A stretch of 45,537 nt of DNA, filler included, from Jimgerdemannia flammicorona (Eukaryota), in the NCBI GenBank assembly GCA_003990765.1. It is 2 parts of 2 records of this genome, joined end to end, with 100 filler letters (N's around TTAATTAATTAA, not from the genome) between each part and the next. Parts side by side here need not be neighbours in the genome. Positions count along the whole stretch, not along the records: positions 1 to 22,720 come from RBNJ01001218.1; 1 more part is not named here. One strand, written 5' to 3'. The position numbers were made by a program, and so were the translations under genes. Below the pieces are notes generated by a model. The model had not been told where the DNA came from. It saw nothing but the letters and a program-made list of their open reading frames with translations, and did not search any database. Below, one piece after another: positions 7,086-41,680 of this stretch; the first letter of the stretch is position 1, and every line of letters begins with the position of its first letter.

Positions 7086-7366
7086 AAATATAGATTAGCC
7101 TCATATAACATGACTGTAAACTGACTCAGCAGTCAAATGATCTCTTGATATATCAGATCACACTTATACTATATGACTGTATTCTGACTCAGCAAGGTAC
7201 TAAGTGCTATATCTATATTCAGCATAGTCTAGATAGCCCCCTATTAGTATAAATATTCTCTCTCCTAGACCTCAGAATCTCAGACTTGAACAGATAAAAA
7301 TACAACTTTTGAACACTTCTCCACAATATTCTTTCACACAACTACTCCTAATATAGCAATATCATA
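7086..7366 (+). repeat. Putative distal remnant of the family B 5' LTR
   Basis: TATAAATA at ~7248, end ATATCATA (decayed ..CA) followed by PBS-like AATAGTGAATAAACC. No matching second copy is visible in the window. Confidence 0.4.
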
Positions 7367-7484
7367 AATAGTGAATAAACCTATTTAATAACCCACAAAT
7401 TACTCTTAAGTAAATCTACTCTCTATTATGTCCCACTCCTAACTATATTATGAAATTTCCTAATTGAGTATTGTCTGCAGTAAT

Positions 7485-9700: not shown

Positions 9701-9754
9701 CAACAGGAGCAACTGTTACTACTCTGTACTACCTAAACAATCTGATTACCAAAA

Positions 9755-10165
9755 CACTGAACTTTATTAAGTTAAAACAAACTACCAAGACCCTAACCAA
9801 AGAAAGTCAAAAAAGCAGTTAGATACAATCTATATATAGTCAAAGAAGCTATAGTTTCTAACTGAGAAGTTAAGCAAGTCTATATAGGAATCAGCATCCA
9901 AATTTCTGAAAGATATATTAGAAGGATATGCTATTACAGTAATCTAGCACTGAAAGAACTCTCAGTAGAAAGAGAAGTTATTGATGAAGATTATATAGGC
10001 AAAATCATTGTCCTCATCTGAAACCATGGTTGAATACTCTTCAAGATCTCTATTGATTTCTGTATTGCTCAGATCCTACTCAAGAAAATTGAGTCAACCC
10101 TCATGTCAAAGAAGTCTCTGAACTACTGTCTACTATCCAAGGATCCAAAGGATTTGGTTCATCAA
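9755..10165 (+). pseudogene. dut: dUTPase domain of family B
   Basis: Decayed motifs RYNL (GYDL), SNLA (SGLA), VIDEDYIGKI, IAQI and C-terminal KGFGSS. Confidence 0.85.
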
Positions 10166-10389
10166 ATAAGACTCTAGTTCAATCTACCATAAGTAAGGAA
10201 GAACAATTCTATAAGAAAATTAAAGATGGTTATGTACCAAGTGGCTAATACCCCTATAGTATTAGAATATACTCTTTTTGAATAATTGATGATTACTTCT
10301 CTTATGTCAATGAACTGGCCCAAAGAAGAACCAATAGAAGAAAAGCTCCTATAACCAAAATTACTAGCATTAGATCAAACAAACTACTT

Positions 10390-13129
10390 ATACTTCAAGC
10401 TTTTATCAATTGAGCACTTGTCAAGATCATGATAGATAGTGGTATCTCAGGCAACTTTATCAATAAAGAAATAGCCAACAGACTCAAGGTTCTGACCTCT
10501 CTGGTACAACAAACTCAAGCAGTTGCCACAGCTAATAGAATCTCACATATTATTAGCAAGAAAGTCTATAATCTACTCTTTCAAATTGGTAACTACTGAG
10601 TATATATTATACTTCAGATTATACCACTTCCTGATAATGAAATTATCCTTGGGACCTCATGGTTAAAATAAGAGAACCTTATGATTAATTGGATAAATTA
10701 TTCTCTGCTCATCAAGAAAAGACACTATAACTTCAAACTATAAGATAAAAAAGACCCACTCAGTTCTAGTAATTCTAGACCAAAGGTCACTCATATTAAT
10801 AAGCTATAACTCAAGAAGTTAGTCAAGAAATACCCTCTCTTTGCTATCTTTATCTGTCCATCAAAAAGAGAATCTGAAAACCTAGAAGAAGACTTTTTCA
10901 AAGTTAATAGCCATATTAGACTACTACTCCAGAAATTCTGAGATATATTTCCAAAGAAACTCCCAAAAAGTCTATCACCTAAATGAGCAGTAGACCATAT
11001 CAAGATCATCTCAGATACCAAGCCAGTCTTTAAGTCAATCTACTATATATCTCTAAGAGAAATCAATACACTTAAGAAAGAGATTGAAAAACTCTTAGAA
11101 TAAGGATTTATTAGATCTAATATATTACTCTATAATATACTAGTTCTTTTTGTTGTCAAGAAAGAAGAAAATCTGTAAATATATATTAATTATTGAGACC
11201 TCAATAAACAGACTATTAAGAACTATTGCCCACTATCTTGAATCAATGATATATTTGATAGACTTACCAATCCATAATTTATGAGCTCTTTTGACCTATG
11301 AAATGATTACTAACAAATTGCTATAAAAGAAGAAGACATCTACAAGACAGCCTTCTGAACTCACTATAGATATTTTAAGTTCTTAATTATACTCTTTGGC
11401 TTAACTAATGCTTCTACAACTTTTCAGACACTGATAAATACTATTCTGTACCTATACCTGGATAAATTTATTATTGTCTGTATTGATAACATCCTGGTCT
11501 TCAGCAAAATTCTGAAGAAACATCTCAAATATCTTGAACTAGTACTACTGAAACTCTGAGAAAATAGACTCTTTGCAAAACTCAGTAAATGCAAATTTTT
11601 TCTGAAGGAAATTCAATTTTTTAAATATTGTCATATCAAATAGAATCAAAGTAGACTCCAGCAAAATCTCTATAATTAAGAATTAGCCTAGACTAAAGAA
11701 GCTGAAAGACCTTCAGTCATTCTTAGGACTAGTAAACTATTACTAATAATTTATTACAAACTTTGCCAAGATCACTACTATTCTTACCTAAATAACTAAG
11801 TACAGCAAGAAAGAAGAATAGCTCTGGACCACAAAATAAGAAAAAGACTTCAACAACCTTATAAATTGGGGATCTGAACAAGATACAGTCTTTTAAGTAC
11901 TAAAAGATGTCTTGATAACCACTCTAGTACTCCAAGCAGCAAACTCTACCCTATCTTATGAAGTTACTACTGATGTCTCTGACCTAGCTCTTAGAGCAGT
12001 ACTCATGCAATAAGGACACTCTGTGGCCTATCATTCTCAAAAGTTCAATGATGCTAAAATCAAATATACAATCTATAAGAAGAAAATGTTAGCCATTATA
12101 GACACTCTGATCAAATAGCAGCCCAATCTCAAAGGAGCACACTTCACTATATTGACAGACCACAAATCATTAGTCAACATCAAGGCCCAGGCTACTCTTT
12201 CCCAAAAGCAAGCCAGATAGATGAAAGTCCTCACCAACTTTGACTACAAAATCCAGTATCACTCTAGTAAGGAAAATATTATTACTGATACAATCTCCAG
12301 ACCACTAATTGAAGAAGTTATCCAAACTCTCACCTTAGTTATCAACTCTATCATAGAACAAATTGTCACAGCATATGCTAATGATAAAGAAGCTCAAGCA
12401 CTTTGAGAAATTCTGAATAGTGATGATATTGACAAGAATACTTAGTATCATTAATACTAACTGAAGGACAATACCATCTACTATAAGAACAGATTGTATA
12501 TTTCTAACAATTGAGACCTCCAAAGGACCATTCTATTCAAATGTTATAATACTTCTATAGTTAGATATTTAGGATTTGATAAATGCTATGAAGTTATTTT
12601 TTAATACTTCAATTGGTCTCATATGGCTGATTAGCTAAAGATCTATATTACTTTCTGTGATATGTACTTACTAATGTAATAAGTTCTCAACACTAGTAAA
12701 ACCTAGTCTACTCCACCCTATTCTATCTACTAATTGAGAATAAATTTCTATGGACTTTATTGTATAACTACTCTGAACCAAGAATGAGAAAGATACAATT
12801 GTTATATTTATGGACTATCTCAGCAAACAAGCATACTTTGTGCCTACTACTACTACTGCAATAGCACCAGATATGTATAGCCATACTCTTGTTTGACAAC
12901 ATCTTTTGCTATTATGGTCTCTCTAAGATTATTATTAGTAATTAAGACCTAAAATTCACCAGTCACTTTGGAAAGCCCTCCATATACACCTTGGAATAAA
13001 ACTTATACTATTTATAGCCTTTTACTCTAAAACTGACAGCCAAACTGAAAGAATGAATCAAACTCTAGAACAAATACTAAAGAACTATATTTTCTATAGA
13101 TAAGATGATTGGTATGAATATCTTACTAT
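10390..13129 (+). pseudogene. pol: Protease, RT, RNase H and integrase 5' part of family B
   Basis: VKIMIDSGISGNFI; LFGLTNASTTFQ; VCIDNILVFS; VTTDVSDLALRAVL; ILTDHKSL; ISMDFIV; TDSQTERMNQTLEQ. Confidence 0.9.
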
Positions 13130-13533
13130 TGTAACATTTTAGTATAGTTTATTTCTTTTCCTTATCTTTCTTCAATATTCTATGATCTTCTGGTACTTTC
13201 TGAATGCTTAGAAATCCTTTCTTGGTACCGAGCATTAACTAGTACTTATTTAGTTAGTCACTGAATGTCCTGGAAACTTGTAGAACTTTATTTGTCATTA
13301 TTTGTCATCTTTGCCAAGAACTTTCCTCTTGGTATTTTCCTTTGATTTCTCAGATCCTTCCAGATCCTTCTTTCAGATCTTGTATAAATATTCCCTTTGT
13401 TCTCATGAATAAAGCCTCAGAATATTTTCTCTCAGAAATCCTTCGAAGAATACTTAAATTCTTAGTATCTCTTCGAGCTACTTAAGACCACCAGACTTAG
13501 TCACTTTCTTATTTAGAAACTAGAACTGTTACA
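13130..13533 (+). repeat. 5' LTR of element C
   Basis: TGTAAC...GTTACA with internal TATAAATA and AATAAA; ~95% identical to 18766-19169. Confidence 0.97.
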
Positions 13534-13550
13534 CTTGATAGCAGTGGTGA
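13534..13550 (+). promoter_or_regulatory. PBS, initiator tRNA-Met-like
   Basis: CTTGATAGCAG here and CTTGGTAGCAG in copy 2 (44390); TGGTAGCAG is complementary to the 3' end of many tRNA-iMet. Confidence 0.65.
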
Positions 13551-13601
13551 AGTTACACCTAGTCTTATCAAGACACCTCTCAAGATATCAGTTACAACAC
13601 T

Positions 13602-14633
13602 ATGAAGGACAACAGGTGGAACCCTTCATATAGTATCTATGGTCCAGACAATGCCTCATACAATCAGTACAATCAGCAAGAAGAAGAGGAATAGCAAAAC
13701 CCTACTCAGTCGAATGGGGCCATCAAGAGTCTTTTGTAGACTACATTAGCTCAGATTGCTCAACTTCAAGAATACATAGAAAGAAAGGAAAACAAGGCCC
13801 CTGCTCATACCTCTGCACCTCCACCAACATCAATACATCCAACAGCAGTCACTATCAAGCCTCAGAAGCCCAACACCTTTGATGGTCAAAGAGGAAGACT
13901 ATCTACCAATACCTGGCTTTTCCAATTGGAGCAATATGGAGAACTGACCAATTTGGAAGAAGCAACACTAGTCCAATTTGCCACCACACTCCTCCAAGAG
14001 AATGCTGCAATCTGGTAGCAAAATCATGTCCAGAATACCAGATTCTCTGGCTGAATCAAGACCTGGGGTGAATTCTCTGATGCTATTCAAGGCCAATTCA
14101 AACCAGTCAACAGCACCAAGGCCACACAAGACCATCTGGCAAATGTCAAACAACTCAAGTCTGTATAAGTATACAATGCACAATTCCTGTCAATTCTGCT
14201 AGAATTATCACATGTCACTGAAGACGAGAAGGTCAACAAGTACATCTGAGGTCTGAAAGGTCAAACCCGAGTTCGTGTTGAACTAGAAGAATCCAAGGAC
14301 CTAGATACAGCAATGAAAATTGCTGATAGGTTTGATGTCATCACCTATGGTCATTGCTTTGAATAGAAGAGACCACCTTTCAACAACAACAACCACAGAA
14401 GGGAGGAACCCAAAGTCAGAACTGTTGGACCTGCCCCTATAGACCTAGACACCATTGACAAGAGCAAGAAAGGCAAGCTTATACCCAAGGAAAAGGAGTG
14501 TCTCAAGAAGGCTGGAACCTGCTTCTTTTGCCATCAGCCTGGTCACATTGTAACCAAATGTCCCAAGAAAACCGCAGAATCAAAGAGGATTCTGGTCCTG
14601 TCCAAAGACACTCAAGGTCAACCAGTTGAATAA
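13602..14633 (+). pseudogene. gag: gag of element C
   Basis: KPQKPNTFDG, WLFQLEQY, capsid-like helices and intact CCHC knuckle CFFCHQPGHIVTKC at ~14520-14561. Confidence 0.9.
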
Positions 14634-15055
14634 GAAGTTGTACTCAATTTCATGCAAGTCAACCCCAAGGCCCAGATCCCCCAAGCACAGTCAGAAGGAG
14701 CCATTAGTTTGGACCTTCAAGCAGTACAACAAGTTACTATTCCAGCACATGAAAGAAGGCTCATTCCAACTGGCCTTTCAGTCGAAATCCCCAAGGAACA
14801 TTATGCAAGAATTGCACTAAGATCTGGCCTTAGTTTCAAGTACTCATTAGATGTTGGTGCTAGAGTCATTGACCCTGACTTCTGAGGTAAAATGCAAGTC
14901 CTGCTTGTTAACCACAAGAACCAACCATACACTATCAATGAAGGAGACAGAATTGTGCAACTCATTCTGAAATGAGCCACTCTACCAGTCATCAAAGAAG
15001 TCACCAAGCTGTCTCCAACTAAGTGAGATCAGAAAGACTTTGGTAGTACTGATAA
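14634..15055 (+). pseudogene. dut: dUTPase domain of element C, between gag and protease
   Basis: All five motif regions: AISLDL, IALRSGLS, VIDPDF*GKMQVLLVN, GDRIVQLI, KDFGST. Confidence 0.95.
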
Positions 15056-18000
15056 AGTTGCAAGCATAGCTAAGAACTGAGCCAATTCAATGCTCATTTC
15101 CAAAGGTCTAGTCAAGGGACAAGAACTAGATGTTCTTATAGACAGTGGAGCTGTTGGGAACTTCATCAATAAGAACCTCATTGATAAGCTCAAGATTCTC
15201 ACCAAACTAGCTGGTAAGAATGGTAGAGTTGTCACTGCAGATGGCACTATCTTACCAATTGACTCAATTGCTACTAAACTTCCCCTCAAGATCCAGAAGT
15301 ATTGGGAACATTTAGATTTCGAGGTAGCACCACTAGGAGACCATGATCTGATCCTAGGCAAACCCTGGCTTACATGGCACAACCCTCAGATTGATTGGAC
15401 CAAGAATGAAGTCACCTTGATTCAGGATGGAGCCAATATTACCATCAAGCTCAACAAGACTCAGACAAGAACCCCAATTGCTACTCTTTCAGCAATTCAG
15501 TTCAAGAAGGCCCTTAAGAAAGCTACCTGTGCCTTTGTGGCACTGATCTGACCAAAGAAAGAAGACAAGAAGCTATCAATTAGTGAAAGCATCAAGTTAC
15601 TGCTGAACAAGTACAAGGATGTCTTCCCAGACAAACTACCTGGTCTACCACCTTCAAGAGACCATGACCACGAAATCAAGTTGGTACCTGATGCAGCTAT
15701 ACCTAAGAAGAAAATGTACCACATGTCTCCACTCGAAATTGAAGCAGTCAAGAAGGAACTCAATGAACTCATCGAGTGAGGAGCCATTCAGCCAAGCAAG
15801 TCACCCTTTGGTTCCCCAGTCCTATTTGTCAAGAAAAAGGATAATACTCTGCAAATGTGTATAGACTACCATGCACTCAACAAGATCACAGTCAAGAACT
15901 ACTATCTGCTACTGCTCATAGATCAAATCTTTAATGCTCTTATGTAAGAATGCCAAGTACTTCACCAAGATTGATCTCACCTCTGGGTATCACCAAATTC
16001 GAATCAAGCCAGAAGACATACCCAAGACTGCCTTCATGACACCCTTTAGACTCTACGACTTTCTAGTCATGGCCTTTGGTCTCACCAATGTGCCAGCAAT
16101 CTTTCAAGATCTCATATAAACTGTCTTCAAGGATCAGCTCTATATCTTCATACTTGTATATATTGATGACATCCTGATCTTCAGTAGCACTGAAGAAGAA
16201 CACCTCAAGTACATCAAACAAGTCCTCAAGATCCTCTGTGAGAACAAGCTCTATGCAAAGCTCAAGAAATGTGAATTTTTCAAGAATCAAGTTGAATACC
16301 TTGGACACATTATATCAGCCAAAAGAATTCAAGTAGACCCAAGGAAAATACAAGCCATTGAACAGTGGCCTGTACCAGCAAACCTCACTGAACTCAGGTC
16401 CTTTCTTGGTCTGGCTGGATACTACCATCGATTTGTCAAGAACTTCTCTAGTATCGCAGAATCTTTGACAAATCTCCTGTGAAAGGAACCAAACTCTGAC
16501 CTCTATGTCCTCTACATCTGAGATGCTTTCTATCAACAAGCTTTTCAAGAACTCAAGAACTGCCTGACTCATGCACCTGTCCTTAGAAATATAGACCCAA
16601 ACTTGAAGTTCATAGTCACTACAGATACATCTAACTTTGCCATTGGTGCAGTCATTTCTCAAGATGATGGTCAAGGACACTGACCTATTGCCTTTGAGTC
16701 AAGAAAATTGTCCCCAGCAGAACAAAAGCTGGCTACTCATGAAAAGGAACTCCTGGCAATCATACATGTCCTCAAGACCTGGTGACACTATCTAGAAGGA
16801 GTTGAGTTCAATGTGATCACTAATTACAGATCCCTTCAGTATATCAACACTTAACCAACCCTCTCTTGCCAACAAGCCAAGTGGAGTCAACTGCTTCAGA
16901 CCTTTACCCCAAACATTATCTATAAGTCTGGCAAAACTCTAGTTGTATCAGATGCACTTTCAAGGAGACCTGATCTTACTGTAATTTTACAAGTCACCAT
17001 GGTACCTGAATTCCTCAACCAGATCAAGAGGCATATGAACAAGACTCTCTGGTTCTACAAAGGAATACCAAGGAATTCAAGGAAAAGTACACCATCAAGG
17101 ACAACCTCATGTACTATCAAGACAAAGTATATATTTCTGCCAACCCTGAACTACAGTATAAGATTCTTCATGAACACTATGACTCCTCACTAGCTGGCCA
17201 CCTTGGAACTGAGAAGACTATCAAGAATATCCAATGAGACTACTACTGGCCAAACATGCTCAAGGAAATCAAGAAGTATGTCCAAAGCTATGATCTTTGC
17301 TAAAGAAACAAGTCAAGCAATCAAGCATCTGCCAGTCTTCTACAACCCTTGTCAATTCTGACCAAGAAGTTCGAACAAGTCACAATGGACTTCATTGTGC
17401 AACTCCCATAAACCAAAACAGGCTATGATGCTATTGTTGTGTTTGTGGACTGTCTCACCAAGATTACAATTGCCAAACCAACTACAACTAATGCCACTAC
17501 CCCAGAAATTGCAAGAATCTTCTTCAAGACTGTCTTTCGCCATTATGGACTTCTCCAAGTAATTATCAATGACCATGACCCCAAGTTCACAAGCCACTTC
17601 TGGCAAGCACTCTTCAAGACCCTTGGAACCCAAATTGCTATGTTCACTGCCTTTCACCCTCAAACTGATGGACAGACCAAGCGAATGAACAGAACACTTG
17701 AACAAATGCTCAGAAACTATATATCTTATGAGCAAGATGATTGGGACCACTATCTGACCTATACTGAGTTTGCCTACAACAATGCCAACCAATCATCAAC
17801 TGGTCTTTCCCCATTTCAGCTACTTCATGGTCAAAATCCCAAGACCCCTGCAAGCCTAGTCTCATTCCAGCAATCCAGTTACACACAAGTTCCCACAGTC
17901 CAGAACCTTATCAACAAAATGGATTTCCTTCTCAAGATCACCACTATGAACCTGCAAAAGGCTCAGCAATATCAAGCTAAGTATGTAGATAAGAAGCGGC

Positions 18001-18436
18001 GAGATGTCATATACAACATTAGTGATATGGTTTTACTCAAAGCCAACAACATCAAGACTCAATCTCAAGTCAACTGCCAGTCAGCCAAATTCCAGCCTAA
18101 GTACCTTAGACCCTTCAAGATCACTGAGCAAATATCTACCTGGTCTTACCATCTCAACTTGTCAACAACTATACATATACACCCAGTATTCCATGTATCA
18201 CAACTCAAGGCCTGGAACCAGTCACCCTCATACTCTGGCCGAATTCCAACACCATCAGCACCAGTCATAGTTGAAGACCACATCAAGTATGAAGTCAAGA
18301 AAATTTTAGACAAGCGAGTCTGATACCATCACACAGAATATCTAGTCAAGTGGATGGGTTACCCTGAATATGATGCCACCTGGAAACCTACCACCAATCT
18401 CAAGAACTCCTAAGATCTCATCCAAGAGTTCAAGTA
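15056..18436 (+). pseudogene. pol: Protease-RT-RNase H-integrase-chromodomain of element C
   Basis: [61 protein letters not shown]; chromodomain YEVKKILDKR..EYLVKWMGYPEYDATW at ~18288-18436. Confidence 0.95.
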
Positions 18437-18752
18437 AAAAGGAACTCATTGACTACCCATGAGGTTCTTCCCTTGGATAGTAGATGACCTACTGTGCTAA
18501 TCAGGCACATTATGCATTGGAGCTCTCTAAGGGATACAGTATCAGAAGCAAGAGATATAGGAAAACCCTATAAATCCTGCAACCAATGAGGTTTGAACCA
18601 GTTCTCATCCGATCAAGATGATACTTTGGCCCTTACCTTATACAAGGACAGCCAATCCTTACCAATGAGTTGATATATTTAATTTGAAGTTTCTTTTAGT
18701 CTTATTGTTTATTATATATAACTTTGAGAATTCAACAAGGATGTTGATTCTT

Positions 18753-18765
18753 AAGGAGGGGGAGA
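18753..18765 (+). promoter_or_regulatory. Polypurine tract of element C
   Basis: AAGGAGGGGGAGA immediately before the 3' LTR. Confidence 0.9.
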
Positions 18766-19169
18766 TGTAACATTTTAGCATAGTTTATTTCTTTTCCTTG
18801 TCTTTCTTCAATATTCTATGACCTTCCGGTACTTTCCGAATGCTTAGAAATCCTTTCTTGGTGCTGAGCATTAACTAGTACTTATTTAGTTAGTCACTGA
18901 ATGTCCTGGAAACTTGTAGAACTTTATTTGTCATCATTTGTCATCTTTGCCAAGAACTTTCCTCTTGGCATTTTCCTTTGATTTCTCAGATCCTTCTGGA
19001 TCCTTCTTTCAGATCTTGTATAAATATCTCCTTTGTTCTCATGAATAAAGCCTCAGAATATTTTCTCTCAGAAATCCTTTGAAGAACACTTGAATTCTTA
19101 GTATCTCTTCAAGCTACTTAAGACCACCAGACTTAGTTGCTTCCTTATTTAGAAACTAGAACCATTACA
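18766..19169 (+). repeat. 3' LTR of element C
   Basis: Direct repeat of 13130-13533, followed by the ACTAT TSD. Confidence 0.97.
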
Positions 19170-19855
19170 ACTATAGTCAAGTTTATCTATAATAACAGTA
19201 AGCAAGCTTCTCTTAGAATGATCCTGTTCTTTACCAATATAGGACAAAACCTGAACACCTCTCTGATACTTATCTGAACTACTGATAAATTCTCTACTAT
19301 TGAAGCTATTGAAGAATTTCTGCTCTAAATATATAATTTAAGTCAGATTGCAATTGAGAATTTATTCTGAGCTCAAAAACAACAGTTACAGTATATCAAC
19401 CAGCACTACTGAGAAGAAACTTTTGATATTAGAGAAAAAGTTCTACTAGATATCTGAGGATACTAAGTTGACAACCTCAAGCACAGACTATCTATAAAGC
19501 TGAATAGTAAATTTATTAGACCATTTGAAGTCATTGTACAAGTCTCTCTAATCTTCTATAAATTGATACTACCAGATACTATTAAGATTTACCCAGTCTT
19601 CAATATCCAATATCTCAAGTAATATAATAAAAATGATGATGAGCTATTCCTGAATCAAACTGCAAAACTGCCTGCACCTATCATTATTAATGACCAAGAA
19701 GAATATAAAGTTGAACAAATCCTCAACAAATGTAGCCACAAGAACCATTCCAAATATCTTGTCAAATAGAAAGGTTAACTAATCTATGATGTAATATGGG
19801 AACTCAAGACCAACCTCCAGGATGTCACCAACTTAGTTCAAGAATATAATTCTTG
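19170..19855 (+). pseudogene. pol: Integrase C-terminus (GPF/Y region) and chromodomain of family B
   Basis: KLNSKFIRPFEVI, IYPVFNI, EEYKVEQILNK..KYLVK*KG..DVIWE. Confidence 0.9.
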
Positions 19856-20295
19856 AATAACTGAAATCTAAATACTCTAATACCTATTAGTTATATACTA
19901 TATATTACTCCTCCTAAATATCAAGTACCTTTATAATTATTATAAATAAAATCAAGAACTCAGTAAGATAAAACAAGAGAATACTAACTCTCTAAAAAAA
20001 ATAGCAAAACTAAAAGTCAGCCTATTCTCCCTATATCACTGATGAGAAATGAGGTATAGACATTTAAGAAGATTCCTTAGAGGAAATTCCCCAGTAGTAA
20101 ATGATATCAGAATTACTTTCAGCATATAACATTAAATATATGACCCTTTAATATGTGAATCTAATATATTAGATAACTATACTATGAGCATACTACTTTC
20201 TGAAAAAAAATGAAAGTTACTAAACTTTTGACCATCTAAATAGTATAACAATACTAGACCAAAATTAGAAGACTTTGACAAAGATGTCAAAAGCT

Positions 20296-20308
20296 AAGAA
20301 GGGGAGAG
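20296..20308 (+). promoter_or_regulatory. Polypurine tract of family B
   Basis: AAGAAGGGGAGAG followed by T and TGTAAG at 20310; same context as in element C. Confidence 0.85.
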
Positions 20309-20309
20309 T

Positions 20310-21589
20310 TGTAAGTGCACAACCTCTAAGCCACCAAAATCACATATTATTCCCAGAACAAATCTGGAAATCATATGTAAGATTATGAAGCTAAGTCAAA
20401 CTAAAGTTATAGTATTTATAAAGCTGAGTCAACTTGAAGTTACAGAATATAAGATTTATATAAATAAAATCTTATCAATTAAAACCAAATATATATATAC
20501 CCAGTACTCAGATACATCAAAATAGAGAACTATAACAAACTAAACAAATAATCCCAATTCTTAAATATATATACAAATATGACTACCAAGATCTATAACT
20601 GCATCCATGCTAATATTTGGAATATCATTGTCAACTGAGCCACACTCCCTCTGCTCCTCATGAATATCCATAGCCTAGTATCTCTTTACTTCATAGAAGT
20701 CTGATGAAATGTCCTGAACATACTTAGCAAGATCTACCAAATTGGACAAATCTCAAACTACTATTAGATCAGCCACCTTCTAGAAGATATGATTGAACAT
20801 TACTATGATATAGATATTATCCAGATGTCTCAATACCAGAAACTCATCATCTGCAAACACTAAGAACTTTTTTATGAGTACAGCACCTTTATTCCCTACC
20901 TCTGAGTTACTATCACTGAAATAATTGCCACTCTGTCCTATGACCAAATCAATAATATGATATAAAAACTTAATTATAAGTATATTGAATACATTCAAAC
21001 TACAGACAGAACCTTTCCACACTCTGATGACTATATCCTACAAATACCTTAAGTCAGATATACTATGAAGGATGTTTATGATATAATCTGGTTTAATAAT
21101 AATGAAGTAAAAGATAATGATCCCTCTGATACTGACATGACCTTCAGCCAAGAATCTCTGCCAACCTTGATAACTCTGCCAACCCTATTGATAAACTTAC
21201 AATAGTTCATAATCACTTATGAGACCTATTGAGAAAATAGCCACTAGTATAAATACCAACCTATATTTATCTCCAATTACTTTAACTATAATGAAGAGAT
21301 TGGAGAACACAATCTGTACCTCCAGACAACTCTTGAGATTAAACCTACAACTTCACTACCTAAGTATAAGTAATATAAAGAACAACTGCCAGCATACTAC
21401 AACTCTATAACTCATAGTACTGTCACCTATAAAAGATATGCAGACAGCAAATCTAATAAAAGTGAAGATGATATATCTCTCCTTTACTTACTAACTCCTT
21501 ACCTAGCATATGAGACAGATGATGCTATCTTATAGGATAGTAATGAAGTTCTAATATATTATTATCTTAGCAAATAGAGAAAAGTAATC

Positions 21590-21591
<2 letters not shown>
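20310..21591 (+). repeat. Start of a long 3' LTR of family B, cut by a retroposon
   Basis: Begins TGT right after the PPT; a second copy begins at the same boundary at ~34527. Confidence 0.65.

Positions 21592-21592
<1 letters not shown>
20579..21592 (+). pseudogene. Decayed ORF of unknown product (at least 337 codons) downstream of the family B PPT
   Basis: One frame from ATG (MTTKIYNCIHANIWNIIVN...) with about 14 stops. A TAG here aligns with CAA in the 34.8-35.3 kb copy, and several differences are synonymous. Confidence 0.55.
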
Positions 21593-21628
<36 letters not shown>

Positions 21629-22593
21629 GACTCATGTCCCACAGAATTTTATTAGAAGGGAACCTAAACTATATAGGCCAAAACCCTCCCCCATTACCCA
21701 CCAAGCACTGCCCTCCCATTAACTTAGGCTAGCTATTATCCAGCAGCTTGATCATACCAGGCATAGCAGGGCCTGCACCTCATTCTGTATATCATGCTCT
21801 CCCTACTATCAGAGGAAACCCAACCATATACCAATGACCAAAAGTGTATACCTGAGAATCTAACATATGTACAAGGCCATGCCTGAGCCAAATAGAATAG
21901 CCCCTGCCACCTCAAAGAGAATGACAGGCAAAGACAAACTCTCATCAAAGCACAACATGGTGGATAGGGCCTGGTTCTCCCAGTCGAGATGAGTAAAGAA
22001 CTTATATATGAGGCAGGAGGAAACCTCCAATACCCCACTACTCAAGCCTACAGGCTTTGATTACATTGTTATATCAGCTCTCGGTTTCAGTTGAGTGTAG
22101 TCAAGATGCCTGAAATAGGTAGTCTTGGGCCCCCTGACCCCTCCTGATGACTGGGGCCCAACCTCGCTGACTGCTAAAAGAAGCCGAGAGTGATACCTAC
22201 TACCTAACTATGCTGCACCAATCAAAAGACCCCACCGAAGCAGCATCTGCCCCAGCCCTGACAACTACCCCCAGCCTGATACCCTACTGGTTCACTATTA
22301 TCGCCCTTCCTCTTATCTGTAATGGCCATCTCCCCTCCCATCCCAACAACACCTGAAAAGCAGTCACCTACACCAGAACTACACTTGCTGGGAAGCTCGC
22401 CAAAGTCAGAGGACCCTACCACAGACACTGAAGACCTACAGGTAATCTACACTGAGCACTTGATGCCCAAGGTCAGCTGACTACCTATATAGCCTGAGAT
22501 ACACTGAGACACTACCTTGTTGGTGATAGCAAAAGGAAGAAGGTGCCACACTAAAACAGATATACTCTAGATATAGCTAAAGACACCAGAAAC
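21592..22593 (-). mobile_element. Polyadenylated non-LTR retroposon, 3' part (copy 1)
   Basis: 33-nt poly(T) at 21592-21624; body is the reverse complement homolog of ~36255-37230. Confidence 0.85.
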
Positions 22594-22720
22594 TAGTGCT
22601 CCTAACGAGTCAATTTAATCCGGATTGGATTCGGATTGATTCGGATTGAATCCCATCCGGATCAACTCGGATGGGATTCGAATCCCATCCGGATGGATTC
22701 GAATCGGATTCGAATCGGAT
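22594..22720. mobile_element. Probable DNA transposon terminus (hAT-like) with CGGAT/ATCCG subterminal repeats
   Basis: Abrupt junction starting TAGTGCTC, then dense GATTCGGAT/ATCCGGAT motifs in both orientations with CpG intact; runs into the gap. Confidence 0.45.
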
Positions 22721-22820
22721 NNNNNNNNNNNNNNNNNNNNNNNNNNNNNNNNNNNNNNNNNNNNTTAATTAATTAANNNNNNNNNNNNNNNNNNNNNNNN
22801 NNNNNNNNNNNNNNNNNNNN
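22721..22820. other. Artificial assembly spacer (N44-TTAATTAATTAA-N44)
   Basis: Exactly 100 bp with a six-frame stop linker in the middle. Confidence 0.97.
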
Positions 22821-22980
22821 CATACCACACATCCTGCAATAGGAAGAGATCTGCCTCCAGACCCTTCAACCAGCTAAAAATGTTTCTACGCCGTTTTGCC
22901 CCCCTTAGCCCATTGACGTTCAAAGAAAAGATTCTAGTTGTACTGTTTATATTGAATAATGTTGGTAGGGATATCACAAT

Positions 22981-23440
22981 CTAGAACTCCATGCTTCTCC
23001 TGTCCCCCTCCAGATCTCTGCACCGCTCAGCCTCCAACTCGTCCTCCATCACCTCCTGCGCATCCAGTGCCTCCAAGATTTCCTGGCACTCTGCTCCATC
23101 AACTACTTCGAATTCGGTCCGATACTCCCTGCACACTACTCCCCACTTCTCCAACCCTTTCTTCGAGCTCCACAGATAAGCTGCTTGATCATTCGCAATC
23201 ACTCGAAGTTCCTCCTCTCGCTGATCATCGACTTGATACTCCACCGACTCCAGGAGCACTGCCAGAATTTCATTCCGGACCTTCTTTGGCACCTCCTCAC
23301 CACGCAGAATTTCCTCCCAGTGCCTATCACTCATAACCCGGAAGTCCTCACCCCCCAGCTCCTCAGCTGCCACCCCTCCAGAGTCTTCTACAGCTACTTC
23401 TCCTCCTCTACCACTGCCTCGGTGCTCTGGGCACTCCCTT
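22981..23440 (-). CDS. Acidic helical ORF (~130-150 aa) between LINE ORF1 and ORF2
   Basis: Open frame overlapping the ORF1 end in another frame; protein conserved with 28052-28480 (LESVEYQVDDQREEELR). Confidence 0.55.
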
Positions 23441-24899
23441 CCCCCTCAACCACTGGGTCCACCAATGCGATCCTCCTTCCTGACTCATCCCACTCCTCCT
23501 CCAGGACATCAAGAAGCTCCTCCTCACCTCCGATACCTCCCGGGACCCCGTACTGTGTCTGTGCTTCTACGCTCATCTCAGCATCCTCCACCACGCTGCC
23601 CTGCCCTCCTTCCCCATGGACCTCTTGGGCCACCCTTTGATCCACTCTGGGCTCCCCAGCCCAGTCACTTTCCCTCGATCCTACTCCACTTCCTCCCTCT
23701 CCACCTTCCACCGCGCCTCCTCCCAATTTCTCCAGCAGCTCCTTCTGAATACGCCTCCCCTGCATCTTCTCCCAAGTTCCCCGATCCATCCTGATCTTCT
23801 TCCCTTCTACAATTTCCACCACCGTCTTGGCCTCATACTCCTTCCAAGCCAATCATCTCCTCTCGACAGCTCCCGTCAGATCCTCAAGAGCCTCCAGCAA
23901 ATCCTCCTCTTCCTTCAGCGTCCCTTTCACCCGAGAGACCCTGCACTCAACTGGTCCCCACTTCAGCGTCGCCGGCCAGTCCCTCGCCTTCCCTGTGTTC
24001 TCCTGACCAAACAAGCATACTCTTACATCAACGTCTCCAGTCCTAAGTTCCGTACCCTCCCAGACTTTGAACCCGATATCGATGACATCCCCATACTCCT
24101 TGACCACCTCTACAATCAACTCCCTAGCCCTCTCCCACGACACTGTAGGAAGATTCAGCACCGTCAACTGCACCACTCTCGGGTCCCAGCACATTCACCT
24201 CACCATAGGAACTACCACTCCACCCACTACTACCCCTTTCTCCATAGCCTCCAGCATCGACACCTCTTCTTCAAACCCAACCTCAATCCCTTCCTTCCCC
24301 TTCATGAACTTGACCATAGCTGCCCCCTTCACCTCCTGTGCCACCAGCCCCAGAATCATCCTCGCAGTCACTGCCAAGCCTTGGAAACACAATGTGACCG
24401 CAAATTCTGACCTCGACTTTTTGAGTAATGGTGCCGACACCATGCCTGTCACTCCATCAGCCAGGTCCCCGGGCCTCGTGCCCTCCTTCTGTCCGGATCT
24501 GCCAACCACCGTCACATCTGGATTTTTTTCCAGATTCCCCGTCACAGCCCCATCAGCAGTCATATCTCCAACCCCTACTCCCCCTCCCCCCATACCGACT
24601 GAGGCTCCCATGGGGGATCCTCCCTGCCCTCCTTCTGAACCCGGCATCGCCTTCCCCAGTCCCAACCAACCATCCAGCCCTGTGGCCATCTTCCCCATCC
24701 TGACCTTGTCGGCAAAGGTCGCCCTCCCCCCACCTCTCTGCCTCAGTCCACCTCTCCCTCCACCTCCAGCGCCACCGCCCACCACAGATGGCCCTGGCAT
24801 CCCCAAACCATCTCCTCATTTCCTTCCAACCTGCTGCCAGTCGAAGGCACAGCTGCCCCCCTGGCCGACCTGCCCACCAGTTTGCTCATTGCTCGCCAT
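23394..24899 (-). pseudogene. LINE ORF1 (Gly-rich N-terminus, RRM-like middle, acidic tail)
   Basis: Single frame from ATG 24899 through track ORFs 24195-24806, 23853-24194 and 23394-23852, broken only by TGA stops; ATFADKV and VKEYGDVIDI..RTGDVDVRV motifs. Confidence 0.8.
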
Positions 24900-24981
24900 G
24901 TTGATAGTAGCTTTTCACCAAAAACTTCGCAGAAAGTGTTGTCCAAATCTTGTGTCACCAGAATGTTACCGGTGAAAGGCC

Positions 24982-27900
24982 CTCCAGTCCTACTCCTCAC
25001 TAATACCAACTCTCTTCCAGGCTTCAGGCCAAAGATCTCCACTCAAACTCCACAAACACTCCATACTATTACCAAGCTGAAAGTTCTCCACCAAAGCACC
25101 ATCTAGCAGTAGCCTGTCCCATTGCCACATCTGTGGTCTCCAATCCTCCTCTCCTTCATCACCCCTCTACCAAAGGCCAATTCTCCTAGCCCCATCCACC
25201 ACCCCCCACCAAAAACTCTTATACTGCATCCTCCTGCTCCCATCCATGGCCACCATCACAAGCAGGTCACCAGAGGCTCCATGGGGGGAATACCAGGCCT
25301 CCCACACCCTCTGCATAAGTGGCACCCACTCCTGACCCCTCAGCTTGCTCACCCTCCTCAGCCACCAGGCCCTCAAGCAATGAAGCCATTTGTGAAGGTC
25401 CACTAAACCCAGTTCACCTCTTTCCACAGGTAGGGTAAGAACCTCCCAGCCTATCTTACTCTGCTGCTCTCCCCAGATCCATGATCTCACCATCTTTAAC
25501 AGCCCCTTGACCACCCAAGCTGGGAAGTCCAGATATTATCTCACATATCACAGCTTTGGCATCCAATACACATTCAGCACCATCACTCTTCCTGTCAAGG
25601 ATATATGTCAACCACCCCAATGCAGAAGTACATTTCCCCACTCTAGAAGTCGTTGGTCCCACCATGTATAGGAGAGAAGTGACCCAAACACTGAGAAGTA
25701 GATCCCCAAGTAACACACTGGCTCTTCTGCTGGCACCACCATTCCAATCATGTTGCCACCAACAATTCCACCACCTAGCACCAGAGTCTTGCATTTGTGC
25801 CATTTAAGTTTAGCACCAGATCCTCTCTCATACCATTCAACAGACCTTTGTAACTCCCCCACATCTGCCAACGAGCCCAGTCCAACCACCATATCATCTG
25901 CAAAGGCCCCCACCTTCCAATTTATCTCTAGAATGTCCTAACCCCCAATTCGATGCCAGATCCTATCCAGTAGGGGCTCCAGGGAGAGGGCATATAAGAT
26001 GGGTAACAGAGGGTCCCCTTGTGGCACCCCATGACCAAGAGGAAAGGCTACCCCGCTGTGGCTATTGACTACTAAGGCTGCCTGACCTTTTTCCAAAAGA
26101 TCAATCAATGACCTGCAGAACCCTGGGGGAATACCAATCCATTTCAATACTCCTTCTAGCCAGATCCTCCTCACTCTATCATATACCTTCTCCTGATCCA
26201 AAAAGACCAATTGGCCTCCACTCCTGTAGTCTGAGCTCCTTCAATCACACCATATACCCAAGATGTCCCATTACGGATCAACCAACCACTGACAAATCCT
26301 TATTGCTCCACACCAAGCATTTGCTGAGCAATTCCCTGCAGCCTCAACACCAATATCTTGGTCACTAGCTTGCAGTCCATGTCAAGCAGCATGATTGGCT
26401 GCCAGTTCTTCCGATCTTCCCATCTCCCCTTATCCTTATAGAGCAAAGAGACCAGCCCTAGGTACTGACCCCCAATCCAAGTTCCTGACCAAAGAACCTC
26501 TCTACACATATCCATCATTTCCACCAATATGTATCTCTCTCACCCCAGCCATCTTCTTCCAAAAGTCCCAGGGAAGACCATCCTCCCCCAGAGCCATCCC
26601 CTTACCATTAGAGCCAAAACCTTGCATATTTCATCTCTACTCACCAGGTCCCCCAAAGACCCCAGGCCCATAGCAGGGTCCAGATACCAATCCCCCAGCT
26701 GTCTCTCAATGGTCAAAGCATCCTCCCCCCCTTCCTCCTCACTCCACAGATCCTCCAAATGAGTTCTCAGCAATCCTAGAATTGCTGGAGTCCCCACCAC
26801 CATCTCTCCATCCACAATCCACACCCAGTATGCCATCCCACTGCTGCTTTATTTCTCATGCTTGTAACATCTGCAATAAAAACCTAGTAGGCCTTTCTCC
26901 CTCCTCAAGCCCCTACCATCACAGCCATGCCACCATCCCCTTCAGTCTAACTTTCTTCTCTATTCATAACACTTCCTTAAGCTCCACCACTTCCTTCTGG
27001 ATCCTCACAATATGCTGGTCATTTACCTCCCAATCCTCTGGCACCTCTGCCCATCTCCCCATGACTGCCACTAATTGCTGCGAGGCCCATAGTACCCTCC
27101 GCTGTCACTGGGCACATCTTCCTTTCTCTGCTTCCCTCCAGTACTCAGTACTCACCTTCAGCCTCCTCCAGTAGTCCCCTATCACCAGGCCCCGGTCCTG
27201 CTACCTCCCAATATTCCCAATAACCTTCTTTTCTCAGTCTGCCCACATAACCCCATCCTCCAACAAAGAAGCATTGAGTCGCCAATGTCCAGGCCCATCT
27301 CCACTTCCCCCAAACCTCCCCCCTCCTAACAGACCCCAGTGATCTGACCACAGACACCAAACCTCCTCTAGTATTGTCCAGACATCCTCTCTCCAGCAAT
27401 CCACTGTCAATATCCAGTCAATTCTTGAGTCCAGCCCTGCTGCCCAGTGAGTATAAATGCGATGATTATTCCAAAACCATCTCCCTGAATCAACCAAAGA
27501 ACTCAGCCTCTCCACCTCCAACCAGTCATCCAATCTACCACTCTAGCTCCTCATTCCTCTCCCTCTATCTGTCCTGTCCTTCTCCTAATTCCATACCATA
27601 TTGAAGTCACCCTCCAGGCAGTCCAACCCAATCTTGCCCAAGACACTCATCTCTTTCAAACTGCTAATCCAATCTACTCATTCTCTTCTCTCTGCTGGAC
27701 AGCAACACAACCCCACTATCAATGGGCTCCATCCAGGCCTCTTCCACACTCCTCACACCAACTGAGACCCCCAATGTCCAATGTCCCCAATGCCCCCCAT
27801 CCCTTTTTGAACAAGGATACCCACTCTCCCCATCCATACCACAGCCCCCCCCCATTCCCTAGTCTAATTCTGTAAGTCCACATCCTCTTCATAATGAACA

Positions 27901-28019
27901 TCCTGCAGCAAGAAGAGTTCTGTATCCAGTCCCTTTAGCTATCCAAATATGTACCTCCTCCTAGCCACTCACCATAACTCATTTACATTCAAAGAGAATA
28001 TTCTAGTTGTACTATTTAT
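24982..28019 (-). pseudogene. LINE ORF2 (AP endonuclease and reverse transcriptase)
   Basis: Track ORFs 27234-27533, 26300-26527, 25938-26210, 25608-25913 and 25167-25514 carry consecutive motifs. Confidence 0.93.
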
Positions 28020-30050
28020 ATTGAAAAATTGTTTGAATTTGAGATCTCAGCCTAGTATTCCATGCTCATCTCATCCCCAGCCAGATCCAGGCACCTCTCA
28101 GCTTCCAAGTCACCCTCTGCAACAGCCTGAGCATCCAATGCCTCTAAGATTTCCTGACATTCCACCCCATCCACCACCTCCATCTCCGACCAGTAGTCAG
28201 TGCAGACCACCCTCCACTTTTCCAATCTCTTCCTCAAGCCCCACAAGTACACTGGGTGGTCATTCACAATCCCCCTAAGTTCCTTCTCTCTCTGATCATC
28301 AACTTGGTATTCAATGGACTCCAAAAAGAACTACCAGGATCTCATTCCTCACCTTCCTCAGTACCTCCTCACCTTAAAGGATTTCCTCTCAATGCCTCTC
28401 TTCTATAACCCAGAAGTCCTCTCTCTCCAGCTCCTCCACTGCTACCCCCTTCAGAGTCTTCTACAGCCACTTCTCCTCATCCACTGCCTCTGCCACACTC
28501 TGGGCAACCTGACCACCCCCCACCTTGGGGTCCACCAATACACTCCTCCTCACTGACTCATTCCACTCCTCATCTAGTATATCCAGCAAATCCTCCTCCC
28601 CCTCTGCCCCATCTGGGATACTATACTGAGGGTGCACTCCATTGCTCATTTCCACATTGACCTCCACACTGTCTACCCTCTCCTTTCTCAATCCATCCTG
28701 TGCCCCACCTTGGGCCATCCTGCTTCCCCCTGTCCAGGCACTCTTCTGTGATCCCACTTTCCCATCCCCTATGCTGCTGTCCACTCCACTGTCTCCCAAC
28801 TTTGCCAGTAGCTTCTTCTGGATTCTCCTCCTCTGTATCTTCGCCCAGGTCACCTGATCCATCCTGACCCTCTTTCTATCAACTACTTCTACCACTGTCC
28901 TGGCCTCATACTCCTTCCAAGCCAATCTCCTCCTCTTGACCACTCCTTCCAGGTCCTCCAAAGTCTCAAGCAAGTCTTCCTCCTTCCAGAGTCCTCTTCA
29001 CCCTCATGACCTTATACTCCACCAGTCTCCACTTCAGAGCTGCTGGCCAGTCCCTTGTCTTCCCCATGTTCTCTTTTCCAGTCAGCCTCACCTGGACATT
29101 AACATCACCAGTCCAAAGCTCTGTACCCTCCCAGACCTTGAACCCAATATCCACAATCTCCCCATACTCCTTGACTGCCTCCACAATCAACTCCCTAGCC
29201 CTCTCCCTTGACACCATAGGCAAATCCAACACCATCAACTGCACCACTCAGAGGTCCCAGTATATACATCTGGCCATAGGGACCACAACTCTGCCCACTA
29301 TCACCCCCTTCTCCATAGCTACCAGCAATACTTCTTCTTCCTTGAACCCTACCTTGACCCCTTCTTTCATCTTCAAAAACTTCACTGACACTGCCCCTTT
29401 CGTCTTCTGCACCACCAGCCTCAAGATCACTCTTGCAGTTACTGCCAAGTCTCTGAAACACATTGTGATAGCAAATTTGGACCTTGATTTCTTGAGTAAT
29501 GGTGCCGATACCATGCCTGTCACCCCATCTGCCAGATTCCTGGGCCTCATGCCCACCCCCTGTCCTGAACCAGTAACTGCTGTCACATCTGGATTTTTTG
29601 CCAGATCTCCAGTCACAGCCCCATCAACAATCACATCTCCAGCCCCTACTCACCCCCCTCCCCTACCACTGGACACTCCTCTGAGCACTCCTCCCTATCC
29701 CCCAGCAGCAGCTGTCGACACCTTTCCCAGGCCCAGCCAACTATCCAGACTAGAGACCATTTTCCCCATCTTGACTGTATCAGCAAAGATCAACCTCTCT
29801 TATCCTCTCTGCCTCAGGCCACCCCTCCCTCTACCACCAGAGCCTTGGCCAGCCATCGAGGCCCCTGGCATCTCCAAACCATCTCCCCTCCTTCCTACTT
29901 GCTGCCAGCCAAAGGCACCACTGCTCCCCTGGCCAGAATGCTCACCAGATCAATTGTTGCCATCCGTGTTGATAGTCATCTATCACCAAAAACATTGTTA
30001 AAAGTGTTGTCTGAGTCTTGTGTCACCTGAATGTTACCAGTGCAAGGTAC
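24982..30050 (-). mobile_element. L1/Tx1-like LINE with intact 5' end, decayed; 3' end replaced by a younger LINE
   Basis: ORF1 at ~28461-29963; ORF2 with APE motifs SRIDWIL and SDH, RT motifs FLDQEKVYDRV, GVPQGDPL and GAFADD, then LPVERGELGL. Confidence 0.93.
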
Positions 30051-31000
30051 CATATATGAGAGCTATTTATTATATTAATAATAGAGTTCTTATATATATC
30101 AATATATTACTCAAAATCATTAAAGAAAGTAATGATTAAATTATTAGAGATATATCTATAGAATACTGGTAGTCTCATTTCTATCTTATCTAGATATCTT
30201 GATTCAGTTTGAAAGAGTTTGCATGGTAGTCGTTATTTGTCATTTAGTATAAAAGTGAGAAATTTACCTTAAATAGCCAGCTAATAAATATCAAGTTATA
30301 TGTACTAGAGTAGATATGTATTCTTAAATATATAGCAGATTTCTTTATCTTAAATACTTAATCTTCTTTAACTCTTCAGAGTTCTCAGAGTATATATAGA
30401 ATGGATAAGTTTGAAGTATATCTGTCTATAAACTTACATACTGGTTCTCTTGTCTCTTTATTTTAAAATATTTTAATATGAGATTACTTTACCTTAGATA
30501 CTAAAGATATTTATATCAATTTACTAGCTATATATTGGCTAAGTTAAGAAATTCTTTTTCTATTCTATATAATCTATATAATTGTGAGTTTTATACAAAT
30601 TGTATAACTGTGAGATCAAGTAACTACAAACTATAATTCTATATTATATTGAGAATTGAATTTATATGCTATAATCAAATATCTATTTCCTGATTACTTC
30701 TAATTTATATCAATTATCACAATATAAAAATATAAATAACTTCTTCTGACTCACTATATTAACTAAGTATTCTTCACTGAAATATTTAAAATATTGATAT
30801 TATTACTTAAGTAATTCTGAAAAATAATATAATTTCTGATATTTTATAATATAAAAATATATTGGCATTATAAATAAGAGATAGGAAATCAGTTTTGATT
30901 ACTTACAATTTAACTTTATGAGACCACTTATTTAATATTGTATTTTTCACTTTTAACTTTTCTTAAATATTGTAAGATCTTGTATAAATATTCAATGATC
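30051..31000. other. Very AT-rich, CpG-poor relic sequence, probably an old decayed repeat
   Basis: Composition only; no motif recognised. Confidence 0.4.
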
Positions 31001-31109
31001 TTGCAAATAGTTAGCTTTTAGATCCTCACTGTTATGGGTGCAAGCAAATCTATTGTTAGACAGACTTTGACCAATACCCAGCACATACAACAACAACAAT
31101 TCAACTGCT

Positions 31110-34526: not shown

Positions 34527-35345
34527 TATATATATATAATCTCTAAGCTATTAAAATTATATAATATCTCAGAACAATCCAGAAATCATATATAAGATCA
34601 TAAAGCTAAGTTAGTTCAAAATCATGAAATACAAGATTATAAAGCTGAGTCAGTTTGAATTTAAGAAATATAAAACTTACAAAAATAGAATCTTACTAAT
34701 CAAGATTGAGGACATATATATATATTAGATATATATATATACTATATACTGAAACAGAGAATTATAATAAATAACAACCATATCTCCCAAATATATCCTC
34801 TATCATAACTACTGAAATCTATAACTATATCTGTATTAATATTTGGAATATTATTATTAACTATATTATAGTATCTCTATCTCTCAAGAATATCTAAAGT
34901 TTTGATCTCTTCTACTGATCCATAGAATCAGACAAATCTCAAGCTACTATCAAATTAGCTATCTTCTTAAAGATATAGTTAATCAATACTATAATTTAGA
35001 TATTACTAAAATATCTTAATATTAGAAAACTATTATATATAAATACTGAGAACTCTTTTATAAGAATAATATCTTTATTCTCTGCCTTTAAGTTACTATC
35101 ACCAAAATGATTATCACACTGACCTATAGCCAAATTGATAATATATATAGTATAAGAACTAAATCAGAAATATATTAAGTATGTCCAAACTACTGACAGA
35201 TCCTTTTTGCATCTAGATGACCATATTCTGCATATGCCTTAAGTTAGATATACTATAAAGAACATTTATAATATAATTTAGTTTAATAATAATAAAGCAA
35301 ATGACAATAATCTCTCTAATATAAAGATGTCCTCTAGCTATAGTA
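34527..35345 (+). repeat. Second, more decayed copy of the family B LTR start and its ORF
   Basis: Aligns to 20310-~21150 (CTCTAAGC, ATAAAGCTGAGTCA, AATATTTGGAATA, GACAAATCTCAA, GTTACTATCAC). Confidence 0.85.
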
Positions 35346-41279: not shown

Positions 41280-41680
41280 CTAAACTTCTGAATCCCTTGG
41301 CTTGTCTTGTTCCTTCAGTTAGTTCAGAGATTCTTGCAACTGTGGGGTCTTGACCTTCATGAAGACTGCTTGGACAATCTTTTGTCCTCTAATGATTCAG
41401 TGTCATTCTGTACTGCTGTTGTAAGATAATCTTGATTTTGCCTATATATTCTGGGTCGATGATTCCTCCTTCCACAGTTATTCCTTATCTGGCAAGTCTG
41501 GACCTTGAGGTCAGTTGGATGTAAGATCCTTGGGGTGGCTGCATGGCTAATCCAGTTCTGATCAAGAAAGTTTTTCCAGGTTAAATAGATTCATCCTCCA
41601 GACTGTGAAGATCATACCCTATATCTTCTGGGTGGGCTTTGGTTAGAGGTTTGGCCCTGGGATGTAGCAGAGTATACTGG
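41280..41680 (-). pseudogene. dut: dUTPase domain of family A, between protease and RT
   Basis: LLHPRAKPLTKAHPEDIGYDL, RTGLA, SRSRLA, GGIIDPEYIGKI, KGFRS. Confidence 0.9.

Follow-up and report, generated by a model that had tools for sequence, protein, structure and literature searches.

Remains of a probable orphan accessory gene in the putative long terminal repeat of a dead dUTPase-bearing chromovirus

Long terminal repeats (LTRs) of retrotransposons are usually viewed as short regions with control functions and no coding capacity, and they are masked by annotation pipelines. The locus considered here raises the question whether such a repeat of a chromovirus may carry a protein-coding gene. 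It lies in a stretch of 45,537 nucleotides from Jimgerdemannia flammicorona, further referred to as the window. In the original prediction, a long ORF of no recognized type was placed behind the hairpin, the polypurine tract (PPT) and the TG that follow the internal part of a chromovirus, that is, inside its LTR, and a second copy of the same segment was reported.

The window contains decayed retroelements nested in one another, and the coordinates of the relevant features are listed in Table 1. The insert ttaattaattaa in the assembly joint resembles a linker of artificial origin that has stops in all six frames and joins contigs; hence the window does not represent uninterrupted genomic sequence. 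The first contig ends at 22720, approximately 1.1 kb past position 21592, where the segment in question is cut. CpG-rich palindromic repeats of the ggattcgaatcc type are found just before the joint (22610–22720), and an AT-rich unit of 68–69 bp is repeated three times in tandem at 88–335.

Table 1. Features of the chromovirus locus and of the sequences around it, with positions counted along the window.
Feature	Coordinates	Strand	Basis
Stretch of 281 nt before the internal region of element B, with tataaata near 7250	7086–7366	+	abrupt switch from G-rich DNA at 7085/7086
Element B, internal part 1, decayed	7367–13129	+	Pfam on X-masked frames
Element B, dUTPase	9800–10114	+	Pfam PF00692, E = 5e-12; position between gag and protease
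Element B, aspartic protease	10351–10719	+	Pfam on X-masked frames
Element B, reverse transcriptase (RVT_1)	11206–11619	+	Pfam on X-masked frames
Element B, RNase H (RT_RNaseH)	11867–12241	+	Pfam on X-masked frames
Element B, integrase zinc-binding region (Integrase_H2C2)	about 12512–12664	+	Pfam, weak, E = 0.0036
Element A, nested younger Ty3/gypsy element interrupting the integrase of B	13130–19169	+	LTRs 13130–13533 and 18766–19169
Element B, internal part 2 (C-terminal end of integrase and untranslated tail of about 400 nt)	19170–20289	+	Pfam
Element B, SH3_Tf2-1 (E = 2.7e-10) and Chromo (E = 2e-6)	19482–19853	+	Pfam
Hairpin, arms tttgaca/tgtcaaa	20273–20290	+	read from sequence
Polypurine tract aaagctaagaaggggagag	20290–20308	+	read from sequence
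Initial part (about 1.28 kb) of the putative 3' LTR of element B, starting with TGTAAG, right end lost	20310–21591	+	TG after PPT; start shared with copy 2
Decayed orphan ORF, codons 1 to about 338 of an estimated 362, 14 stops	20579–21591	+	phmmer, stop deficit, dN/dS
Poly(A)-ended repeat (on the plus strand, a 33-nt T run at 21592–21624, then the body)	21592–22594	−	
Assembly joint (44 N, ttaattaattaa, 44 N); right side is another contig	22721–22820		
Copy 2 of the segment, partial, more decayed, GC 23%	34527 to about 35340	+	alignment; right end lost
ORF remnant of copy 2, starting with ATA	34805 to about 35340	+	alignment

The element that precedes the segment, further referred to as element B, has in Pfam searches the pol order of Ty3/gypsy chromoviruses, i.e. 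protease, reverse transcriptase, RNase H and integrase with a C-terminal chromodomain, and a dUTPase ahead of the protease. The stop density in its known pol domains is 2.4–4.3%. Before the gag-like motifs of B, about 400 codons in the frame of 7369 (approximately 7600–8780, plus strand) contain about 4% stops, as in the coding parts. This stretch matched no family in the Pfam search; gag may be considerably extended at its N-terminus by it, or the stretch may represent one more 5' ORF.

The integrase frame of B picks up again at 19170, directly after element A. The two LTRs of element A are 94.6% identical, have the ends TGTAAC...TTACA and are flanked on both sides by the 5-bp target duplication ACTAT. 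The best named relative of its integrase region comes from Paraglomus occultum (52% identity), and the next named ones, from an alga, an ascomycete and a grass, are 33–37% identical; by this comparison, a fungal host close to the glomeromycetes is likely. The PF00692 dUTPase domain was also observed in metagenomic chromovirus polyproteins akin to the integrase of element A (P0008, P0046, P0052, P0053 and P0060). Further copies resembling element A are present in the window: 3057–5444 corresponds to 41623–44020 on the opposite strand, and 13171–14653 corresponds to 44028–45512. These copies meet head-to-head near 44020–44028, as might result from inversion or from the insertion of one element into another.

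Two marks of an LTR start were considered at the distal end of element B. The first one is TG immediately after the polypurine tract. Positions 20290–20315 read aaagctaagaaggggagag t TGTAAG, with TG at 20310, one base past the PPT, and the hairpin, the PPT and the TG are all present in the order originally described. The second mark is a terminus that recurs with unrelated flanks, and it is provided by copy 2, whose first base, 34527, corresponds to 20310. BLAST aligned 20321–21131 with 34538–35321 (68.3% identity over 833 columns, E = 1e-81). A purine/pyrimidine alignment across the junction, which tolerates transitions, places the start of the homology between the copies exactly at 20310/34527; upstream of these positions the alignment score is 90 vs the shuffle mean of 89. 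The original prediction that the second copy starts at the same boundary without a PPT was borne out: copy 2 is preceded by T-rich DNA and has upstream of it neither a purine tract nor internal sequence of B. Since the homology starts at this base and copy 2 follows T-rich DNA without a purine tract, the base after the PPT is a recurrent terminus of a mobile unit. Besides, the first bases of the segment, TGTAAG, are similar to the TGTAAC at the start of the element A LTR. The PPT–TG junction after a chromodomain integrase and the identical first base of copy 2 thus support the start of an LTR at this segment, and, judging from these sequence features, it is likely that the gene sits inside the LTR.

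We consider it improbable that the gene is real but internal, i.e. that it is an additional sense ORF (aORF) located between pol and the true 3' LTR, the tract at 20290–20308 being a chance or secondary one and the real PPT having been lost beyond 21592. The cut of the 3' end of the element at 21592 and the lack of an LTR pair with this segment in the window agree with such an arrangement, as does the location between pol and the 3' LTR, where additional ORFs have been described most often according to passages of one review (PMC7264820). It would nevertheless require that the boundary of the homology to copy 2 falls exactly after the purine tract by chance, to within a few bases over more than 1 kb, and it is also opposed by the TGTAAG start resembling that of the element A LTR.

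Next to these features at the left end of the putative LTR, the other ends were searched for. Most of the 5' LTR of B is absent, and its 3' LTR breaks off at 21592. Neither copy of the segment extends to the LTR 3' end, the junction with the primer-binding site or a target duplication. On the 5' side of B, self-BLAST and nhmmer found no copy of 20310–21592, and thus no two direct LTRs with this segment were seen around the element. The stretch 7086–7366 may be the far end of the B 5' LTR. It showed no similarity to either LTR copy or to the rest of the window by BLAST, nhmmer or purine/pyrimidine alignment, and none to the element A LTR. In comparisons of this stretch with the right flank of copy 2, with 30048–31100 and with 21593–22720, the scores were close to those of shuffles (shuffles against the right flank of copy 2). 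Inspection by eye identified no primer-binding site. Since 7086–7366 has neither similarity to nor overlap with either copy, the single LTR of more than 1.3 kb that was suggested to hold both pieces is at present conjectural.

The right-hand truncation coincides with the poly(A)-ended repeat. Its other copy, located on the opposite strand at 37263–36252, is 85% identical and also begins at a T-rich run, and the flanks of the two copies are unrelated. No Pfam domain was found in the 3' kilobase of this repeat, which is probably a non-LTR retroposon inserted into the LTR of B.

The second contig contains direct repeats 22829–24979 and 27898–30047 (2.15 kb, 73% identical, spacing 5.07 kb) within a very C-rich stretch (22829–30047) with a GC skew of about −0.5. 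We considered them as a second LTR pair carrying an ORF and rejected this possibility: Pfam matched nothing on the plus strand and RVT_1 on the minus strand, and the repeats have no similarity to the open relatives of the ORF described below (P0002 and P0003). RVT_1 is located between the repeats, at approximately 25698–26210 of the minus strand. Rather than an LTR pair, they resemble a non-LTR element present in two incomplete copies in tandem. A G-rich relative was observed on the other strand at 5462–6082.

The proposed ORF starts with the ATG at 20579, 269 nt into the segment, in agreement with the approximately 270 bp stated originally. These 269 nt contain several TATA-like runs, which are common in DNA as AT-rich as this. 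The frame, claimed to be open for at least 337 codons, is in fact closed: under the standard code it contains 14 stops in 338 codons (5 TGA, 5 TAG and 4 TAA). It is depleted of stops all the same. The other two sense frames contain 24 and 47 stops, and the antisense frames 13, 31 and 35, the count of 13 belonging to the exact antisense frame. In dinucleotide-preserving shuffles, 29.7 ± 5.0 stops are expected in one frame vs the 14 observed; 14 or fewer were reached in 0.05% of 2000 shuffles (p about 0.0005), and 13 or fewer in the best of six frames, in 0.2%. The resulting stop density of 4.1% is on par with that of the pol domains of B itself.

The protein databases were searched with phmmer exhaustively (1.84 billion representatives of approximately 15 billion proteins). 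Four hits were obtained, of which two are convincing. P0003 (128 aa, JGI) is open, aligns to residues 1–128 of the query with 64% identity (E = 7.8e-45) and has the same initiator methionine. P0002 (247 aa, ENA), open as well, aligns to residues 116–334 with 52% identity (E = 1.1e-61) and extends 28 residues beyond. They come from environmental assemblies of different sources, each being a fragment encoded on a short contig of 1180 bp (P0003) or 998 bp (P0002). They overlap by 14 residues and differ there, and therefore originate from different copies; combined, they imply a full-length protein of about 362 residues. P0004 and P0005, the remaining hits, were discarded as relatives: these are tandem-repeat proteins with scores summed over the repeats, and Pfam assigned to them only scattered sub-threshold families. 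A search for homologous proteins with the X-masked translation yielded nothing in the range of 185–592 aa, and the same search with P0002 yielded only P0002 itself. Scans of metagenomes, genome contigs and viral contigs for the DNA context of P0002 and P0003 found nothing.

Comparison with the relatives clarifies how the frame was closed. Thirteen of the 14 stops face arginine (4), glutamine (5) or tryptophan (4) in the relatives, and the fourteenth faces asparagine. Codons of these three amino acids become stops by a single C>T or G>A change. A single C>T or G>A in the window accounts for 94 of the 154 mismatches to the relatives, vs 18 for a change in the opposite direction and 21 for one transversion. 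An alternative genetic code was considered and rejected, given that TGA, TAG and TAA all occur and that all stops but one are opposite to these three amino acids. The mixture of stop types and the residues facing them fit decay rather than recoding.

The CpG observed/expected ratio is 0.0 in element B and its LTR copies (7086–13129, 19170–21592 and 34527–35345), 0.11 in element A, 0.23 in the stretch 22829–30047 and 0.33 in 21593–22720, and the differences between the two copies of the segment are dominated by C>T and G>A. The loss of CpG and the prevalence of transitions point to decay of a methylation-type or RIP-like nature, the extent of which grows with age.

This shared state bears on a further explanation, in which the segment does not belong to B but is a mobile unit of its own, or a host gene picked up by transduction, that landed both beside the PPT of B and at 34527. 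Such an origin, which we regard as quite unlikely, would accommodate the presence of B sequence next to only one of the two copies of the segment, the loss of the right-hand ends in both copies and a protein unlike any retroelement protein. It is opposed by the need for the insertion to hit the exact PPT–LTR junction, with the start of B's own LTR falling beyond the lost right end, and by the decay state of the segment, which is that of B (the same complete lack of CpG and an equal stop density) and not that of element A. As for copy 2, a solo LTR or a remnant of a 5' LTR explains it equally well as an independent mobile unit.

Copy 2 contains the same ORF in a more damaged form. In tblastn searches it was matched by P0003 (E = 1.4e-19) and P0002 (E = 2e-11). 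A 40-nt deletion and a 4-nt insertion both shift the frame, and 9 stops are found in 175 aligned codons. According to the original prediction, copy 2 carries the ORF with synonymous differences and with CAA opposite a TAG. The latter part stands, as CAA faces TAG at codon 63, and 27 of the 175 codons differ synonymously; 78, however, differ non-synonymously, and the ORF of copy 2 is frameshifted. Four stops (codons 95, 109, 129 and 158) are common to both copies, which calls for parallel hits at hypermutable CGA/CAA codons or for a common ancestor that was already damaged. The gene of the segment is dead in both copies present in the window.

The differences between the two copies were analysed for protein-level constraint. 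They affect 51 of 176 first, 30 of 175 second and 66 of 176 third codon positions. The Nei–Gojobori dN/dS is 0.28 (164 codons, bootstrap interval 0.15–0.44), a rough estimate, given that stop codons were dropped from the NG86 calculation and the spectrum is transition-heavy, so that the "neutral" baseline is nearer to 0.7–0.9 than to 1. This is the lowest value of the six frames; the shifted sense frames yield 0.68 and 0.77, and the antisense frames, which are partly correlated with the sense frame, 0.41, 0.91 and 0.37. The antisense values of 0.37–0.41 count against the reading as a gene, as does the similarly low number of stops in the exact antisense frame. A dN/dS of about 1 had been named in advance as an outcome that would speak against a gene, and even the rough estimate obtained lies well away from it. 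Both open relatives and a dN/dS well under that of the control frames were thus found. The pattern of substitutions indicates that the window copies diverged under constraint on the protein and that decay came afterwards.

The predicted protein was compared with known families and folds. With E-values up to 1, Pfam recognized no family, MMTV Sag included, in the six frames of the window segment, in P0002 or in P0003. The profile search against PDB gave no sequence match, and ESM Atlas provided no usable neighbour; in line with the original description of the ORF as unknown, these searches assigned to it no known family and no fold. The AlphaFold model of the head (first 128 residues) consists of five helices (pLDDT 52, pTM 0.46, low confidence), whereas the tail (247 residues) was modelled with pLDDT 35, and the Atlas model has pLDDT 0.39. 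P0002 has a pI of 4.05 and contains 46 acidic vs 10 basic residues; D, P, Y, T, E and Q are abundant in it. The models would thus describe, with low confidence, a helical head of about 125 residues followed by a very acidic tail (about 240 residues) in which Tyr, Pro and Asp abound and which may be disordered, given its very low model confidence. No late-domain (PPxY, P[TS]AP, YPxL) or zinc-knuckle (CCHC) motifs and no basic runs were found in P0002 or P0003.

The protein without a family or a confident fold, the frame closed 14 times and the antisense frame equally poor in stops (13) are what could be expected if there had never been a gene, that is, if a non-coding LTR were short of stops by chance and the "proteins" in the databases were spurious ORF calls on related non-coding repeats. 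Several observations make this highly improbable: the relatives are open over 247 and 128 codons in the sense frame (E = 1e-61 and 8e-45), 13 of the 14 stops are on arginine, glutamine or tryptophan, the differences between the copies have codon-position periodicity with a dN/dS of 0.28, the lowest of the six frames, and so low a number of stops has p of about 0.0005 in the shuffles. It is very likely that this is a real gene in decay. A fuller statement we hold to be fairly probable: the 3' LTR of a dUTPase-bearing chromovirus, now dead, would begin with the 1.28 kb of 20310–21592, and this segment would contain what is left of a real accessory gene with about 362 codons.

Among the systems described in the literature, the layout closest to that proposed for this gene is the sag gene of mouse mammary tumour virus (MMTV), presented as the "LTR ORF" in U3 of the viral LTR in the part of the literature considered (e.g. 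passages of PMC2118998). The analogy depends on the placement of the present gene in U3, which would follow from the TG directly after the PPT and from the same first base of copy 2 next to which no internal sequence occurs. Like sag, the gene would be a sense ORF of approximately 320–360 codons in a long U3, duplicated with the LTR and located at the 3' end of the genomic RNA. It differs from sag in having no sequence relation to it, as neither the frames nor the open relatives match it in Pfam, in the fungus-like host and in belonging to a Ty3/gypsy chromovirus instead of a retrovirus. In addition, the protein is acidic, its model is of low confidence and no membrane anchor was noticed. In the sag layout, the ORF is enclosed between the start of the LTR and the TATA/R region; here the ORF starts 269 nt after the putative LTR start, and its end and the promoter/R region lie outside the copy present in the window.

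Additional ORFs of plant LTR retrotransposons form the second point of comparison. These are extra sense ORFs between pol and the 3' LTR, as described in passages of a review by Vicient and Casacuberta (2020, PMC7264820). As there, the present ORF is an extra sense ORF past pol that is family-specific, obscure in function and conserved across copies. Unlike the aORFs of these passages, which are located before the PPT, its ATG lies 269 nt past the PPT–TG junction (20308/20310). In the text of the review covered by a term search, the phrases "in the LTR", "within the LTR" and "inside the LTR" are absent.

The third system is crapaud of Podospora, which, according to passages of PMC10787394, is a chromodomain Ty3/gypsy element with non-coding LTRs of 339–443 bp and a U3 that varies between subfamilies. 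Element B shares with it the Ty3/gypsy type and the chromodomain integrase. Compared with the LTR lengths given in these passages, the LTR of B would be at least about 1.4 kb long and coding; B also carries a dUTPase. In full-text searches of open-access papers, we found no description of an LTR-internal gene for any fungal LTR retrotransposon. Judged by its sequence, the gene is previously undescribed and in no known family.

The following scheme would account for these data. The gene would have been located in U3 of the LTR; a live element would then carry two copies of it, and every solo LTR, one. The 14 stops arose from arginine, glutamine and tryptophan codons through C>T and G>A transitions, accompanied by the total loss of CpG, and the poly(A)-ended insertion took away approximately the last 25 codons. 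Expression would most likely have proceeded via one of two routes. The gene may have had its own promoter in the first 269 nt, with transcripts ending at the poly(A) signal of the LTR, or it may have been the 3'-terminal ORF of a subgenomic or spliced RNA of the element, as in MMTV sag. Our best guess about the function, a pure conjecture, is an accessory factor serving the element, e.g. one that cooperates with the proteins of the particle or of integration, or one that counteracts silencing by the host. It is a more doubtful proposal that every LTR and solo LTR of this chromovirus lineage was a complete gene cassette with its own promoter in the first 270 nt, an acidic accessory ORF of 362 codons and a poly(A) signal. 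If it were true, fungal "complex retrotransposons" would scatter functional copies of an accessory gene, possibly of an anti-silencing factor, in the course of recombination to solo LTRs.

Should the presence of a selected gene inside a chromovirus LTR be true, such elements would possess accessory functions of the retroviral style that have been overlooked so far. Each insertion would double the dose of the gene, and the gene would persist in solo LTRs. The orphan protein family would then provide a means of testing how retroelements respond to heavy methylation-type decay in this genome.
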